A stretch of DNA of 64,000 nt, from contig JBNLDQ010000026.1 of assembly GCA_050304475.1 (NCBI GenBank), forward strand, positions 376-64,375, written 5' to 3'. A program made the translations under genes and the position numbers. The notes below the pieces were generated by a model. That model did no database searches. It had not been told where the DNA came from and saw only the letters and a list, made by a program, of their open reading frames with translations. Each line of letters opens with the position of its first letter. The first letter of the stretch is position 1. The stretch is from Turneriellaceae bacterium. Its GTDB lineage: Bacteria; Spirochaetota; Leptospiria; Turneriellales; JAOUFE01. Below, one piece after another: positions 26,477 through 30,182 of this stretch.

Positions 26477-27553
26477 TTACAATGTTTTTTGCGTATAGCC
26501 TCTTTGCTGTACCGTATGGGTTAATTCATGCGCCATTAGCCGCTTTCCTTCCCCCGTATTGGGAGAGTACTGGCCGCCGCCAAAGAAAATATCCCGGCCA
26601 ACGGTAAAGGCTCTGGCATTGACTGAGCGAGCCAGCGTATGAGCTCGGGCATCCGTATGAATCTTCACGCCGGAAAAGTCTGCGCCAAAACGGGGTTCAA
26701 AATATGCGCGCTCGCCCGTAGAAAGAGGGCGGCCTGCGCCTCCCCTCGCTGCTTCGAGGGAAGATTCTACATGATCGGGCGCTGACGTTACCGACGTTTG
26801 TGTGTTGTTATTTTTTCGATATAGAAAAAATTTTCGTTGAAGCATCTGTTTTTTTCTTTGCAAAGAAGTGCTGCATTGCGGGCATAATTTTGCCTGGTTC
26901 ACCGGACGGCTTTCGCGTTTCGCCTGGGCCTCTTCTTTTGCGCACGAAGCGCACTTGCGCTGTATCCGTTTTGCCTGCGCTTTCATACCCTCTTCTTCCG
27001 GCTTTGCCTCGCGCTGGAGTTTGGCCTGAGGCTCGTCCTCTTTTTCGGCTGCGCGCTGGAGCTTGGCCTGAGGTTCGTCTTCTTTTTCGGCTGCGCGCTG
27101 CAACTTGGCCTGAGACTCTTCTTCAGGCATGCCCGCTTTTTGCATCTTGTCATCTTCCGGGGCCTCTACGCGCTGCAGGGGCGTTATTGACGACGCCAAT
27201 GAAGAGATCGAAAGCAGAGGAGAGCGGGAAATTTGCCGATTGCCCTTGGTGGAATTTTCAGCCACGTTATCGCTCATGTTCGGCATTGAGACGACCCGGT
27301 CGGCGATCCGGTCGGCTTCTTGCTCGTACCGATCATTTGCCGGACCGATGTTTAACTTTGCTTGCAAAATTCCCGAACGGTAAAGCCGCTTGGTTGCCCT
27401 GTTCCCCAGGTTCATTTGAAGTTGCATGACCGACTGCAGCGCATTGTTGGTGCTGTGATCATATTTTTTTGCGGACGATGTATGATGAAAGCTGGTTTTT
27501 CCGGATGAGGATTTATCGATACCGTTTGCCCTTGCGTTTGTTAAAAAAGACAT
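26477..27553 (-). CDS. DUF4157 (HExxH) domain protein with an internal 14-aa tandem repeat and a CxxC...CxxC element
   Basis: N-terminal LGNRATKRLYRSGILQAKLNIGPANDRYEQEADRIADRVV. Three copies of QAKLQRAAEKEDEP. CASCAKEE...CPQCSTS. C-terminal GRPLSTGERAYFEPRFGADFSGVKIHTDARAHTLARSVNARAFTVGRDIFFG...GKRLMAHELTHTVQQ. Confidence 0.8.
   Translation of the reverse strand: MSFLTNARANGIDKSSSGKTSFHHTSSAKKYDHSTNNALQSVMQLQMNLGNRATKRLYRSGILQAKLNIGPANDRYEQEADRIADRVVSMPNMSDNVAENSTKGNRQISRSPLLSISSLASSITPLQRVEAPEDDKMQKAGMPEEESQAKLQRAAEKEDEPQAKLQRAAEKEDEPQAKLQREAKPEEEGMKAQAKRIQRKCASCAKEEAQAKRESRPVNQAKLCPQCSTSLQRKKQMLQRKFFLYRKNNNTQTSVTSAPDHVESSLEAARGGAGRPLSTGERAYFEPRFGADFSGVKIHTDARAHTLARSVNARAFTVGRDIFFGGGQYSPNTGEGKRLMAHELTHTVQQRGYTQKTL
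27010..27130. repeat. 42-bp tandem repeat (about 2.9 units) inside the DUF4157 gene
   Basis: The units CGCGCTGGAG(T/C)TTGGCCTGAGG(C/T)TCGTC(C/T)TCTTTTTCGGCTG lie at 27010, 27052 and 27094 (the last is partial). Confidence 0.8.
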
Positions 27554-27789
27554 AGTATATCATTTTAGCGAACCCTATTGATATGGCAAGAATAATTTTT
27601 ATTTTTTATTGTATCGTAAAAAGAAGTTTTCCCGGACCATCTGGCTTGTCACAATTGGATTTGTTCGGAAACTGATATGGAAAAAATTCGTCGGGGTGGC
27701 GGAGGCTCATTTGTCATATAGAGCCAATTTTTACGAAATATCCGAAAACTGAAAAAAACACTTTAAACAGCCTATTACTTATAAAGAAA

Positions 27790-27886
27790 CTGAAAAATTT
27801 GCGCTTCTTTTGGCCCCACCCATCAGGGTGGGGGTGGTCAGGGAACAAACGCAAATAGCCGGAGCCAGGGGCAGACTTGCCCCTTT
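27790..27886 (+). repeat. Full-length copy of the GC-hairpin element (box, HP1, linker, HP2)
   Basis: CTGAAAAATTTGCGCTTCTTTTGGCCCCACCCATCAGGGTGGGGGTGGTCAGGGAACAAACGCAAATAGCCGGAGCCAGGGGCAGACTTGCCCCTTTG. Weaker homology to the 34645 copy extends upstream to about 27695. Confidence 0.8.
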
Positions 27887-27911
27887 GTCTTACACAGTTG
27901 TATTTAATTTG

Positions 27912-30182
27912 CTATAAACTTAAGTCGGTGATAATCATTTTGCGGGCCCTGCTTGAATAGAATCTTTTCTTTGTCGGGTGGCTGAACATGTCAGTGTAGG
28001 GTATGAAACTGTTGTTGATTCTATCGCGTATGTGCATGTGGAGGTGGGGCCGTTCGGCGCATGCGTTGCCGCCGTCGCCGACTGTTCCGATGATTCTGCC
28101 TTGGGTTACCCGCTGGCCTCGCGAAAAAAACCGGCTGGCTGAGTGAAATATCGTGACGTCATAACGCCTGTTTCGCACTCTCAACCCGCAATCTACAATT
28201 GTTCCTGAGATCGGAGATCGTATCGGAGTTCCTATGGGGGCGTAAATATCGGCCGCTCTTGAGTATCCGCCGCAAGAACCCCCGCTATGGTTTAGCGCAT
28301 TGGGCCATCCGCCTCTCGCGTTGTGCGTCAAGCATTGGCTTTCGGCGCCATAATAACGCACTTGCAGTGTCGACATATCTGCCAGGGGCGCTAAGATGTT
28401 TGCATTTTCTTCAATATCGCCGGAACCGCTGAAGGTTTCGTTTACGGATGCCCGCACTGCATTGGAAAGACTGGTAAACCTGTTGGCAAAAGCCGCCGGG
28501 CCAAATTGCGCTTCGGAAACGCTCTCTGCGTTTCGATCTACATTGTATGCCGTTTGCAGCACCGGGTTATAGGTTGTTGAGATAAAGTGCAGAGATGGGT
28601 TGATTCGCCAATAGTCCATCGTCAGCCGGATCGCCGTATTGTGTTCGCCGTTGGCCGCCAGTGTTTGAATAAAACTGCTCATGGTTCCCGGCCCGATTTT
28701 CCCGTCCACGGTCAGGCTGTGATTGTGCTGGTATTGCGCCAGATACCGGATTGTAAAATCGCCGAGGTCGCCGTCGGGGTTAGCGCCAACGAGGCCTTGT
28801 ATGATGCGTACGGCAATATCGCCGGTTATGCGCGACTTGTTGTATTGCACCGCTCTTCGCCGCTCTTGTCTTGTATTTACCCGCGCGTACACCGCGCCGG
28901 TCATTTGGGGTAAGGCGCCTTGGCGTCCCCTGTTCGCCGGCATTTGATTTATTGCATTTTGAATTCGCTCTCGCAACTGCCATGCATTGGTGGTTGCATT
29001 TAAACCCCGCCGGCCTATCTCTACGATCTTTAGGTTGCCTGTCGCCAGAGAAGATCTTGTCGGCGCCCGCCCGGGCAACGCCGGGTTGTAACGGATATCG
29101 GTATCGGGCCCCAGGTTGTTGTTCCAGTCGGCGACCAGTTGTATGCTGTAGTTTTGGCAATTCCCGTTCCACATGGTTCTCATGGCGCGGTTGATGGAAC
29201 CGAGACCGAATTGGCCATCCATTGTTAAACCATGGCTGCTCTGCCAGCGCCCCAGTGTGCGAGCGCTGCCGGGACCAAAATCACCGTCAACCGTCGTTCC
29301 GATCAGGCGTTGGATGATGCGAATGGAAGAGGCGCTGTAATGCTCATATGTATACGATATGGAAGCGTTGATTTGAGCGGCTGTCAAATTTCGCTGCCGG
29401 CGGTTCCCGGGCCGAACCCGGTTAAGAGCGCACGTTCTCTGTAGTTGCGCCGCTTGCATGGTTCTGCCGCCTTGTTGCACCGTATGGGTTAATTCATGAG
29501 CCATGAGGCGTTTTCCTTCGGAAGTGTTCGGGGAATATTGGGCGTCGCCAAAAAAAATATTATTACCTACGGTAAAAGCCCTGGCATTGACGGAACGCGC
29601 CAAGGTTTGCGCCCGGGCATCAGTATGAACTTTTACGGCGGAAAAATCGGCCCCAAAACGGGGTTCGTAAAACGATCGTTCGCGTGCGGATAACGGCTTA
29701 CCCGCGCCCTGCGCCGCTTGGATGGATGACTCTATGTTGCCGGCAACGGCCGGCGGTTTGTTCTTTTTTTTTCGCTGCAGGGGCAAAGGCGTGACGGACG
29801 CCGCTAAAGAGTTTACCGCAGCGAAGGGAGCGCGTGAAATTTGCCGAAAGCCGGCTGCCGGACTTTCCGGCGCGCTTTTGGATTCAGGCATCGTGTCTGG
29901 TATAGAGACTACCCGGTCGGCAATTCGATCTGCCTCTTGTTCGTAACGGTCGTTTACCGGCCCAATGTTTAGTTTGGCCTGAAACGCGCCCGAACGGATA
30001 AGGCGGCCAACCGCCCGGTTGCCTAACGTACGTTGCAAATCGGACCCAAGAGAATTCGCCGGGACGGATAAAGGCGGTCTCTGCATTTGGGTGAGTAAAG
30101 CCTGATTTGCAAGAGACTTGCTTTTGCCGGATACATTTTTATTGCCCCCGCTTCGGCGGGGCGAACGCGCAAACAAAGACAT
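27912..30182 (-). CDS. DUF4157 (HExxH) protein fused to two peptidoglycan-binding repeats and a C-terminal M23 (LytM-type) peptidase
   Basis: The N-terminal LGNRAVGRLIRSGAFQAKLNIGPVNDRYEQEADRIADRVV and the DUF4157 core ending MAHELTHTVQQ are paralogous to 26477..27553. The PG_binding_1-like repeats are IIQRLIGTTVDGDFGPGSARTLGRWQSSHGLTMDGQFG and RIIQGLVGANPDGDLGDFTIRYLAQYQHNHSLTVDGKIGPGT. The M23 motifs are DIYAPIGTPIRSPISGTIV and PHLHMHI. The start was set at MSLFARS to match MSFLTNA of the paralog; the track start is 30218. Confidence 0.8.
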   Translation of the reverse strand: MSLFARSPRRSGGNKNVSGKSKSLANQALLTQMQRPPLSVPANSLGSDLQRTLGNRAVGRLIRSGAFQAKLNIGPVNDRYEQEADRIADRVVSIPDTMPESKSAPESPAAGFRQISRAPFAAVNSLAASVTPLPLQRKKKNKPPAVAGNIESSIQAAQGAGKPLSARERSFYEPRFGADFSAVKVHTDARAQTLARSVNARAFTVGNNIFFGDAQYSPNTSEGKRLMAHELTHTVQQGGRTMQAAQLQRTCALNRVRPGNRRQRNLTAAQINASISYTYEHYSASSIRIIQRLIGTTVDGDFGPGSARTLGRWQSSHGLTMDGQFGLGSINRAMRTMWNGNCQNYSIQLVADWNNNLGPDTDIRYNPALPGRAPTRSSLATGNLKIVEIGRRGLNATTNAWQLRERIQNAINQMPANRGRQGALPQMTGAVYARVNTRQERRRAVQYNKSRITGDIAVRIIQGLVGANPDGDLGDFTIRYLAQYQHNHSLTVDGKIGPGTMSSFIQTLAANGEHNTAIRLTMDYWRINPSLHFISTTYNPVLQTAYNVDRNAESVSEAQFGPAAFANRFTSLSNAVRASVNETFSGSGDIEENANILAPLADMSTLQVRYYGAESQCLTHNARGGWPNALNHSGGSCGGYSRAADIYAPIGTPIRSPISGTIVDCGLRVRNRRYDVTIFHSASRFFSRGQRVTQGRIIGTVGDGGNACAERPHLHMHIRDRINNSFIPYTDMFSHPTKKRFYSSRARKMIITDLSL

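Follow-up and report, generated by a model that had tools for sequence, protein, structure and literature searches.

DUF4157 (PF13699, now named "eCIS core domain" in Pfam) marks the N-termini of toxins with variable C-termini, for which an immunity gene is often missing (PMC3482391, section 13). As the eCIS core domain at toxin N-termini it has an odds ratio of 2614, and payload-less DUF4157 genes regularly adjoin toxins (PMC8213781). [quoted passage not shown] In the AlgoCIS of Algoriphagus machipongonensis, Cgo1 and Cgo2 occupy the tube lumen; both begin with a disordered segment, contain DUF4157 and differ from each other at the C-terminus (PMC8894135); cargo loading needs the N-terminus, which cargo pairs of one system have in common, and DUF4157 is dispensable for AlgoCIS loading (preprint 10.64898/2026.05.27.728243). 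Five DUF4157 proteins of Halogeometricum borinquense are secreted sheath-dependently (PMC11566945). The VgrG2b-type HExxH domain is tied to a contractile secretion machine and acts on the bacterial cell envelope (PMC6899460).

Two minus-strand genes, A (26477..27553, 358 aa) and B (27912..30182, 756 aa from the ATG), were analyzed in a window of 64 kb (the whole stretch of DNA). Judged from their domains, both are members of the known PVC-metallopeptidase/DUF4157 effector class, in which a constant N-terminal HExxH domain precedes variable payloads, a genome carries several paralogs and immunity genes are frequently lacking (PMC3482391, PMC8213781, PMC11297309). The link of DUF4157 to toxin N-termini and contractile injection systems, stated in the original prediction, is documented. 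Cell-wall-directed payloads in this class include Tox-OmpA, glucosaminidase and EAT10, and the 2012 lineage list for the domain does not include spirochaetes (PMC3482391). Like Cgo1/Cgo2 (PMC8894135; preprint 10.64898/2026.05.27.728243), A and B are a pair whose disordered N-termini resemble each other and whose C-termini differ, with DUF4157 in the middle; a Sec signal is lacking, and one member is much larger. The genes for Cgo1/2, however, belong to the cluster of their injection system, and the proteins were localized to the tube lumen, whereas A and B sit between sucD and cutA with no apparatus in view; A also has no C-terminal domain at all, and the payload of B (two PG_binding_1 repeats and M23) is not theirs. 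H. borinquense likewise has several DUF4157 proteins per genome, and three of the locus tags lie far from the cluster, which we take as a precedent for dispersed cargo genes; it is, however, an archaeon with a membrane-anchored system, and for two of its toxic members a partner gene located downstream gives protection, whereas none is evident by A or B (PMC11566945). The DUF4157-annotated HExxH domain is also shared with VgrG2b of P. aeruginosa and other T6SS effectors, where it is a C-terminal toxin fused to VgrG or PAAR rather than an N-terminal constant module (PMC6899460).

Architecture of genes A and B

Gene A encodes a leader and N-terminal module as in B, an acidic repeat linker, a CxxC...CxxC knuckle and the DUF4157 core, with no payload after it. 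The conserved N-terminal module (residues 44-129, 27167..27424, minus strand) includes the YEQEADRIADRVV helix. The acidic ..EDEPQAKLQRAAEK.. linker is encoded by three tandem 42-nt repeats (27010..27135, minus strand; copies at 100%, 93% and 67% identity), and the zinc-knuckle-like CASC...CPQC insert, read in the sequence, lies at the linker/core junction (residues 201-228, 26870..26953, minus strand); several paralogs have this insert and B does not. DUF4157 was assigned by Pfam to residues 276-352 (26498..26728, minus strand; E = 3e-32, 110.9 bits). In the AF2 model residues 1-36 are disordered, while the helix at 75-89 (blocks with mean pLDDT 85-96), residues 201-230 (block means 88-92) and the core (89-97) are confident. 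The protein ends 12 residues past the second His of HExxH, as the original prediction had it.

Gene B encodes, in order, a disordered leader, the conserved N-terminal module, the DUF4157 core, two modules of PG_binding_1 plus a helical part and a divergent M23 domain (Pfam positions are given in 756-aa numbering). The N-terminal module, common to A (LQRTLGNRA .. LQAKLNIGP.NDRYEQEADRIADRVV .. ISRAP .. TPLPLQRK), spans residues 48-138 (29769..30041, minus strand), and DUF4157 with HELTH spans residues 163-239 (29466..29696, minus strand; PF13699, E = 2e-31, 108.6 bits). At the core/payload boundary lies AAQLQRT, a hydrophobic-Gln-Arg motif enriched in homologs (residues 244-250, 29433..29453, minus strand). 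Two tandem modules, each with PG_binding_1 followed by a helical/beta part, occupy residues 263-583 (28434..29396, minus strand; AF2 block-mean pLDDT about 70-94), the repeats lying at about 286-334 and 456-506 (two stretches, E = 7e-10, 39.4 bits against a cut-off of 23). An identical 756-aa product was called in NCBI GCA_050303135.1 and on a Logan contig.

The original prediction of a shared N-terminal segment and a DUF4157 core ending in MAHELTHTVQQ was borne out, A and B being 64% identical over 85 aa in the first block and 68% over 113 aa in the second. The dN/dS between them was 0.15 (N-terminal block) and 0.09 (core), which indicates purifying selection on the blocks in common. In a 63-sequence alignment the nearly invariant columns (B numbering) were G50, Q64, K66, L67, D74, Y76, E77, E79, A80, D81, A84 and V87. 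A YEQEAD-like motif was present in 97/119 homologs; this conserved helix lies outside the Pfam boundaries and was modelled at pLDDT 85-96. A hydrophobic-Gln-Arg/Lys motif flanks the DUF4157 core on both sides family-wide. Across 119 homologs its Gln-Arg form occurred at 0.13-0.29 per 10-aa bin in the 10-39 aa past HExxH and at 0-0.07 deeper in the payloads. The lack of a signal peptide in the original prediction agrees with the hydropathy (Kyte-Doolittle) of both proteins: no hydrophobic stretch of the signal or membrane kind is present, and over the first 70 aa the 15-residue mean peaks at -0.04 in A and at 0.25 in B. With a profile made from A, B and their relatives, no solved relative was retrieved.

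The payload of gene B

All three domain assignments of the original prediction (PF13699, PG_binding_1 and M23) were confirmed with Pfam, the M23 (LytM) domain at residues 641-720 (28023..28262, minus strand; Peptidase_M23, E = 1e-9, 38.6 bits, cut-off 28.7). The label of a peptidase was overstated, because one zinc ligand is replaced. Ser641 (codon TCA, 28260-28262) stands in place of the first zinc-binding His of HxxxD, a position that is His in 130/149 relatives; the motif reads HAGWD in the closest relative, P0121. Asp645, His680, His713 and His715 are kept (4/5 catalytic positions), and the domain is not fully canonical. It was aligned to PDB chains 9gy1 and 6yj1 and to lysostaphin, and it is very divergent, with a best PDB E-value of 1e-6 and only one database relative below 1e-10. 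Like M23/LytM peptidases (lysostaphin, LytM, ShyA; phage 2638A endolysin, PDB 6yj1), it passes the Pfam threshold and conserves the GTP(I/V) turn, the catalytic His and the HxH motif, and its local motif CGGY-x-RA-x-D matches 6yj1; unlike them, it has Ser in place of the first zinc-ligand His, is fused behind a DUF4157 module and lacks a secretion signal. The second tandem module also lacks AHELEHV, a motif normal there in aligned relatives, as does P0121.

Among 1.84 billion cluster representatives, a single clear relative of the payload was found, and none of the others among the 120 best homologs has an M23 payload. In P0121 the B-type payload occurs with no DUF4157, and no injection genes were found nearby.

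Genomic neighbourhood, paralogs and host

The host, a spirochaete not yet in culture, resembles Leptospirales and branches deeply; its UvrC is 41-47% identical to those of the distant kin Leptospira, Turneriella and Leptonema. A and B sit between sucD and cutA, with sucCD, cutA and ftsH as housekeeping neighbours (SucCD and FtsH were identified from inspected translations, not by HMM). As originally noted, neither an apparatus nor an immunity-like ORF is present in the window: no sheath, tube, baseplate, VgrG, PAAR or T6SS domain was found by Pfam (42/48 other ORFs ≥90 aa), no injection-system domain by PHROGs in 10 unannotated ORFs, no immunity gene is evident beside A or B, and the two gaps adjoining them hold no ORF ≥50 aa.

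A search for paralogs with different C-termini, as the original prediction proposed, returned five more in the same assembly or sample (one with a Het-C payload, four unannotated), giving at least seven with A and B; for four loci, contigs of the same assembly gave confirmation. The seven are all scattered single genes amid housekeeping genes, unlike the operon-near published effectors (PMC11297309), and no contractile-injection gene was found within 10 kb of any. The same was true of four DUF4157 genes at two loci of a second Leptospirales assembly, where paralog positions differ, giving 0/11 genes (8 loci) in total. That no secretion system was found refers to the window and 10 kb around each paralog, not to the whole genome; the assemblies are incomplete metagenome bins, so they do not allow the conclusion that an injection system is lacking. 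In a 2021 survey eCIS were found in 0/439 Leptospira, 0/3 Turneriella and 0/2 Leptonema genomes (PMC8213781 supplement).

More than 1,800 homologs have highly varied C-terminal domains, many cell-wall-directed (OmpA, Amidase_2, SLT, YkuD, VanY, LysM). On at least 5/9 contigs with the closest homologs outside this lineage (Methanoperedens, Chloroflexia, Anaerolineae, SAR324, Nitrosomonadales), injection-system structural genes lie within 10 kb, and homologs adjoining such genes also have the leader and N-terminal module (48% identity to Methanoperedens).

Proposed function and alternative explanations

On balance, we lean towards A and B being two of at least seven scattered PVC-metallopeptidase/DUF4157-type effector genes, with payloads injected via a contractile particle encoded elsewhere. 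Each gene is transcribed as a separate unit from a near-consensus sigma-70-type promoter, whose position would let the transcript start at the ATG or right beside it. The proteins have no Sec signal, and each presents first a Ser/Lys-rich disordered leader, then the conserved module (LQRTxGN, LQAKLxIGP, YEQEADRxAxxV helix, ISRxPL..ITPLQR), the DUF4157 HExxH core, the hydrophobic-Gln-Arg/Lys boundary motif and a paralog-specific payload. If A and B work like AlgoCIS Cgo1/Cgo2 and the DUF4157 proteins of Halogeometricum, the leader may direct loading into the particle and the DUF4157 zincin may help to process or release the payload. The payload of B would attach to a target bacterium's cell wall and might also cut it, and the payload-less A may be a co-packaged partner or a DUF4157 effector in its own right. 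The polymorphic-toxin logic of the original prediction holds for the constant N-terminal module and variable payload; toxicity, like loading, delivery and processing, is what we infer, whereas the domains, the paralogy and scattering, the promoter layout, the motif enrichment and the lack of apparatus or immunity genes nearby come directly from the data. Injection is favoured by Pfam scores far above threshold, the two common blocks and their dN/dS, the swapped C-termini, the varied and often cell-wall-directed C-termini of the homologs, the homologs beside injection genes, the modelled disorder of the A leader with a confident helix and core, and the published precedents on DUF4157, Cgo1/Cgo2, H. 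borinquense and toxins with no immunity gene. It is disfavoured by the lack of an injection gene near any paralog, the operon-near precedent, the eCIS-free survey of Leptospirales genera (only distantly related to this organism), the missing zinc ligand and the dispensability of DUF4157 in AlgoCIS loading.

A less probable but serious alternative is that the lineage has no injection particle and its DUF4157 proteins act without one, by release through lysis, vesicles or an unrecognised exporter or inside the producer, the conserved N-terminal module and DUF4157 forming a self-contained processing device. This would fit the 0/11 Leptospirales genes near an injection gene, against at least 5/9 of the other-lineage contigs, the lack of eCIS in 444 cultured Leptospirales genomes and the DUF4157-free payload of P0121. 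DUF4157 also occurs in mycobacteria, where no such system is known (Rv2189c, PMC12067865), and in Sphingomonadaceae, where T6SS is rare (PMC6899460). Against it, scattered H. borinquense DUF4157 proteins are secreted via a distant injection system (PMC11566945), the leader and N-terminal module are those of injection-adjacent homologs, the bins are incomplete and no alternative export signal is visible in A or B.

It is improbable that the two genes are cassettes in decay or out of functional use, A as a payload-less stump and B with catalytic losses in both peptidase-like parts of its payload. The early end of A, the missing AHELEHV, Ser641 and the inverted REP-like elements on both sides of gene A point that way. 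Payload-less DUF4157 genes are, however, regular beside toxins (PMC8213781). Both frames are also intact and identical in two assemblies, with B on the Logan contig as well, near-consensus promoters are kept, the common blocks are under purifying selection and the M23 domain retains four of its five catalytic positions.

EnvC and NlpD are non-catalytic LytM factors with an imperfect zinc site. That B serves its producer as a housekeeping factor for cell-wall remodelling (an autolysin or an EnvC/NlpD-like activator, with DUF4157 regulatory) is very unlikely: its PG_binding_1 and imperfect M23 domains, its place amid sucCD, cutA and ftsH and the conserved Rv2189c gene beside the hydrolase gene ripC in mycobacteria (PMC12067865) would agree with it, but B has neither signal peptide nor lipobox, which closes the usual routes to the periplasm, is one of seven paralogs with swapped C-termini, in a family whose gene positions differ between the two assemblies, and, far from the universally conserved hydrolase that the original prediction had named as refuting it, is a single one-member cluster among 5.8 billion, its payload having one clear relative.

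Promoters and intergenic elements

A 43-nt inverted repeat (arms 91% complementary) borders gene A, one arm being a REP-like palindromic element with core CCCCACCCTGATGGGTGGGG in the B/A gap (27807..27849) and the other lying downstream of A (26257..26299). A GC-rich hairpin lies directly 3' of the B stop (27867..27884, minus strand, found as a plus-strand site in the terminator scan); the minus strand continues GGCTCCGGC and lacks a T run, so the hairpin is no more than a possible terminator for B. The promoter scan gave the same site, TTGCCA, 16 nt, TAAAAT, for B (30191..30218, minus strand) and A (27562..27589, minus strand), with 8 nt from the end of the -10 box to the ATG in each (30182 and 27553). 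The B site was one of the two best (10/12 matches) in positions 25900-30800. The B start at TTG 30218 in the mechanical ORF list was rejected, since that TTG is the -35 box of B's own promoter. For 9/10 Leptospirales DUF4157 genes a sigma-70-like promoter of leaderless layout was found, its -10 box ending 5-8 nt ahead of the ATG.

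Domain architecture and paralogy

Genes A (26477-27553, minus strand, 358 aa) and B (27912-30182, minus strand, 756 aa) were searched against Pfam, and every domain named in the original prediction of two DUF4157 proteins, one with peptidoglycan-binding repeats and an M23 peptidase, was confirmed. A mechanical ORF list placed the start of B at a TTG (30218), but this TTG belongs to a promoter-like site as its -35 hexamer; the ATG at 30182 was used, as it agrees with the product called in public assemblies, and Pfam positions in B were converted to the 756-aa numbering. PF13699 (DUF4157, current Pfam name 'eCIS core domain') matched residues 276-352 of A (E = 3e-32, 110.9 bits) and 163-239 of B (E = 2e-31, 108.6 bits; cut-off 22), covering model positions 1-77 of 79. 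In B, PG_binding_1 (PF01471) matched two stretches (E = 7e-10, 39.4 bits, gathering score 23) and Peptidase_M23 matched residues 641-720 (E = 1e-9, 38.6 bits, gathering score 28.7). NCBIfam returned sub-threshold matches only.

An N-terminal block (64% identity over 85 aa) and the DUF4157 block (68% identity over 113 aa) are common to A and B. As dS between them was saturated (about 1.9) and dN/dS was low (0.15 and 0.09), the genes are old paralogs under purifying selection, with neither a recent duplication nor a decaying copy. The leader of both proteins is Ser/Lys-rich, with AF2 block-mean pLDDT for A of 46-48 over the first 30 residues and 57 over residues 31-40. No hydrophobic signal or membrane segment was found in either protein (maximum hydropathy -0.04 for A and 0.25 for B), in agreement with the predicted lack of a signal peptide. 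A disordered N-terminal leader without a Sec signal is a trait of injection-system cargo of the Cgo1/Cgo2 type (cargo proteins of AlgoCIS), and A and B have it. The GC content of A (0.52) and B (0.54) against a window mean of 0.46 was uninformative as to horizontal transfer, since sucC (0.51) and ftsH (0.50) are similarly above the mean. Three tandem 42-nt repeats in gene A (27010-27135) encode an acidic linker in which a QAKLQR motif is reiterated; their copy number could vary between strains.

Peptidase core, acidic helix and boundary motif

The HExxHxxQ zinc-binding signature is present as HELTHTVQQ in both proteins, and H342, E343 and H346 were invariant across 63 sequences. In the HExxHxxQ-E signature of Zhang (2012), a downstream Glu on a third helix is the third zinc ligand. 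A ends 12 residues past the second His, with no Glu, and therefore cannot hold this ligand; B has none ahead of the first PG-binding module. In A, a YEQEADRxAxxV helix precedes the core by about 190 residues, beyond the Pfam model boundaries. It was nearly invariant in the 63-sequence alignment and confidently modelled (AF2 block-mean pLDDT 85-96), which suggests that this acidic helix, a family-wide feature, belongs to the folded DUF4157 domain. Its acidic residues may serve as zinc ligands in place of the downstream Glu. A CxxC...CxxC zinc-knuckle insert, found in A and several paralogs, was also confident in AF2. A profile of the 63-member family searched against PDB sequences gave a spurious coiled-coil match only and did not recover VgrG2b.

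Across 119 homologs, a hydrophobic-Gln-Arg/Lys motif was frequent 100-200 residues before HExxH, absent within the core, present at 0.13-0.29 per 10-residue bin at 10-39 residues past HExxH, and present at 0-0.07 deeper in the payloads (regions C-terminal of the core). The version in B is AAQLQRT, at the core-payload boundary. We infer from this flanking of the core on both sides, again family-wide, that the motif is a candidate self-cleavage site, processed by the proposed releasing peptidase.

Payload of B

The two PG-binding modules of B were modelled at an AF2 block-mean pLDDT of about 70-94. The M23 part fell below 50, as the alignment is shallow there, so the assessment of its zinc site is based solely on sequence alignments. 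The M23 match in the PDB was chain 9gy1 (E = 1.3e-6). Alignments to 9gy1, 6yj1, lysostaphin and P0121, the closest relative of the payload, placed S-R-A-A-D at the HxxxD motif, with Ser641 at the His position (CGGYSRAAD in B vs. CGGYHRAFD in 6yj1 and HAGWD in P0121); 130 of 149 relatives have His here. B keeps the Asp, the catalytic His (TIFH) and both His of HxH (PHLHMH), and the catalytic and HxH positions are His in 141-147 of the same 149. In its Pfam match, HxH and catalytic His the predicted M23 domain conforms to the family; in the HxxxD His it departs from it. With Ser641 among otherwise conserved M23 residues, B may either cut peptidoglycan or only bind it.

An exhaustive HMMER scan of 1.84 billion cluster representatives gave P0121 as the sole clear relative of the payload (E = 1e-15); a word-indexed search with the C-terminal 179 aa of B returned no match, missing B itself as well. 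P0121 lacks DUF4157 and lies away from any injection genes, so the payload of B is itself a shuffled module. Relatives of 635-665 aa (alignment A2: P0009-P0035, P0002, P0003, P0006 and P0010), a widespread group, have a recurrent build of DUF4157 followed by two modules, each a PG_binding_1 repeat plus a helical/beta domain. The second module ends in a metallopeptidase-like motif, AHELEHV..EFLGE, which has no Pfam annotation and is lost from B and P0121, both of which end in an M23 domain in its place. B is a candidate cell-wall-binding module, possibly lytic, from a poorly sampled lineage.

Homologs and probable same-genome paralogs

The search with B returned more than 1,800 homologs, all with PF13699 and with very different C-termini (PG_binding_1, OmpA, Amidase_2, SLT, YkuD, VanY, M14, LysM, SH3, Het-C, annexin, several Tox/Ntox and PT-HINT). 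Among the best 120, M23 was found in B itself only, and this payload combination, in which the M23 zinc site is altered, was unseen among the other best homologs.

Five of the best matches share their assembly or their sequencing run with A and B. P0005 (508 aa, beside mdh and pntAB), P0047 (720 aa, beside argS and clpS/clpA) and P0052 (648 aa, among housekeeping genes) lie on assembly contigs; P0019 (526 aa, beside O-antigen genes) and P0020 (440 aa, among unannotated ORFs on a contig of only 5.1 kb) lie on Logan contigs. P0086 was rejected as a same-genome paralog because it comes from another genome. The N-terminal module is common to all seven proteins and the sequences diverge past the DUF4157 core, into M23 in B, no payload in A, Het-C in P0052 and unannotated payloads in P0005, P0047, P0019 and P0020. 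The search for further paralogs with different C-termini, proposed with the original prediction, was thus productive, and the seven paralogs support the polymorphic-toxin logic of a constant N-terminus and a variable payload. The locus also allows a natural comparison in compact form, since A and B have the same leader and DUF4157 module but only B carries a payload.

The five other paralogs are all single genes, and the up to 10 kb seen per side contains no injection-system domain and no obvious immunity gene; the genes after P0005, P0047 and P0052 are housekeeping or on the opposite strand. The C-terminal region of P0019 (locus L024, 10001-11581) contains a second HExxH (WLVHELVHVSQ) not detected by Pfam, reminiscent of the PVC-metallopeptidase copies that a 2012 study reported as C-terminal 'toxins'.

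In a second Leptospirales MAG (GCA_040326155.1), three DUF4157 genes occur in a row and a fourth elsewhere, with no apparatus nearby. The row (L002, 1-12425) encodes proteins of >1,720 aa, 636 aa and 608 aa, the last with Amidase_2. A PIN-domain gene lies between the 636-aa and 608-aa genes, and small unannotated ORFs (159 and 178 aa) after these two genes could be immunity genes.

Promoter layout and immediate surroundings

The best two sigma-70-like sites in 25900-30800 lie directly upstream of A (27562-27589) and B (30191-30218); both consist of TTGCCA, 16 nt and TAAAAT, with 8 nt from the end of the -10 box to the ATG. A spacing of 5-8 nt between the end of the -10 box and the ATG was found for 9/10 DUF4157 genes in two Leptospirales assemblies vs. 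2/47 other window genes, for which crude longest-ORF starts were used. The other genes with this layout are at L018, L021, L023, L024, L002 (two genes) and L003, with the site just upstream of 10001 (7432 for the second L002 gene). The layout implies predicted leaderless transcripts as a feature common to the Leptospirales copies, and the DUF4157 genes possibly share regulation.

On the side of A lie sucC and sucD, in convergent orientation to it, and on the side of B cutA, the gene for a secreted 164-aa protein of no known family and ftsH (SucCD and FtsH were identified by inspecting translations). No sheath, tube, baseplate, spike, PAAR, tape-measure or T6SS gene was found in the window by Pfam (42 other ORFs) or PHROGs (ten unannotated ORFs, none with any match), and the gaps after A and B contain no ORF of ≥50 aa. 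The window accordingly shows neither an apparatus nor a directly downstream immunity gene, as had been predicted. Classical polymorphic toxin systems differ in having an immunity gene immediately downstream. The 164-aa protein (30707-31201, minus strand), whose gene is the second one upstream of B, after cutA, has a clear signal peptide, no family match and its own promoter-like site; it is conceivable as a periplasmic immunity factor against the payload of B.

Association with contractile injection systems

A and B belong to the known DUF4157/PVC-metallopeptidase effector class, with a hypothetical delivery route. DUF4157 is the strongest sequence marker of injection-system toxins, an eCIS core domain (odds ratio 2614) that toxins carry at their N-terminus (PMC8213781). 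In 2012 it was introduced under the name 'PVC-metallopeptidase', as the constant N-terminal releasing peptidase of otherwise variable toxins, for which immunity genes are often missing (PMC3482391). Close homologs of the N-terminal part of B were found at eleven loci in a species-representative genome collection, one in the second Leptospirales MAG and ten on nine contigs. Structural genes of a contractile injection system lay within 10 kb on at least five of these nine contigs outside Leptospirales, consistent with the literature on DUF4157. The Methanoperedens contig carries Tail_P2_I and a PAAR-like DUF4280, then an array of six DUF4157 genes; the Chloroflexia contig carries a gp19 tube protein, the Anaerolineae contig a sheath and three tube proteins, and the SAR324 contig a CIS tape measure and an AAA+ ATPase. 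On the Nitrosomonadales MAG contig, Baseplate_J adjoins a DUF4157-PG_binding_1-Aspzincin_M35 protein (L013, 12219-14717), a cell-wall-binding payload with a different peptidase.

We lean slightly towards A and B being cargo of an injection system encoded elsewhere in the genome. Cgo1 and Cgo2 of AlgoCIS have a common disordered N-terminus and DUF4157, differ in their C-termini and fill the tube lumen (PMC8894135); loading requires the N-terminus, not DUF4157 (preprint 10.64898/2026.05.27.728243). As in such cargo of one organism, N-terminal sequence is shared by A, B and the five paralogs. The gene position differs: genes of this cargo type would be expected in or beside the injection cluster (within about ten genes), whereas no injection-system gene was found in the 64-kb window or up to 10 kb from any of the five further paralogs. 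In Halogeometricum borinquense, secretion of five DUF4157 proteins is sheath-dependent (PMC11566945), and we read the locus tags of three of the five, far from the cluster, as direct precedent for scattered cargo genes. Of published effectors, 88% lie within ten genes of the operon (PMC11297309), so the full scattering of seven individually promoted genes is unusual for the effector class.

That A and B act independently of an injection particle is somewhat unlikely. A 2021 survey found no eCIS in 439 Leptospira, 3 Turneriella and 2 Leptonema genomes (supplement of PMC8213781), genera to which the host is only distantly related. If the genome proves to be without an injection system, such toxins can work without one. 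A still bolder reading, which we regard as unlikely, is that the lineage keeps seven or more dispersed, leaderless DUF4157 genes, each with its own promoter, but lacks any contractile injection system. Leader, YEQEAD helix and core, bracketed by the hydrophobic-Gln-Arg/Lys motifs, would in that event make up a self-processing cassette for autonomous delivery or activation, and the injection-system 'core' label would be too narrow for DUF4157. A housekeeping LytM factor (EnvC/NlpD-like) is a poor description of B, a one-member cluster that has no signal peptide, an architecture not conserved across relatives and one clear relative of its payload.

Host and other features of the window

A and B are also encoded on GCA_050303135.1 and its twin assembly (95-kb contig), and B on a Logan contig of run SRR36185838. 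The window UvrC was 57% identical to a protein of a 'Leptospirales bacterium' MAG, 53-55% to Spirochaetia MAGs, 48-51% to most Leptospiraceae MAG matches, 44-47% to Turneriella and about 41% to Leptospira species. DUF1577, a Leptospira-specific domain, occurs on another contig of the host genome. The host is a deep-branching uncultured Leptospirales-like spirochaete.

Gene A is flanked by two inverted 43-nt copies (26257-26299 and 27807-27849, 91% complementary) of a palindromic element with core CCCCACCCTGATGGGTGGGG. Mobile-cassette marks were rejected as the main reading; a REP-like element fits better, since the core is a self-complementary hairpin and two further diverged copies lie in other intergenic regions of the window (15279-15298 and 34756-34775). 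By chance, no copy of the element would be expected.

At 2579-6105 (minus strand), three overlapping ORFs (139-157 aa) without Pfam or PHROGs match come after the gene for a 732-aa subtilase with DUF4382. A giant ORF (56201-64000, minus strand, at least 2,599 aa) continues past the end of the window; its sole Pfam match is one Calx-beta domain, and its product is probably a surface or adhesin-like protein of very large size. A cluster at 15478-22817, 4-11 kb from gene A, encodes an 885-aa TSP3/RCC1-repeat protein, a 970-aa AAA_16/MalT-like AraC-family regulator and a 484-aa DUF5122 beta-propeller protein. In GCA_040326155.1 (L003), too, a DUF4157 gene has an AraC-type regulator in its vicinity.
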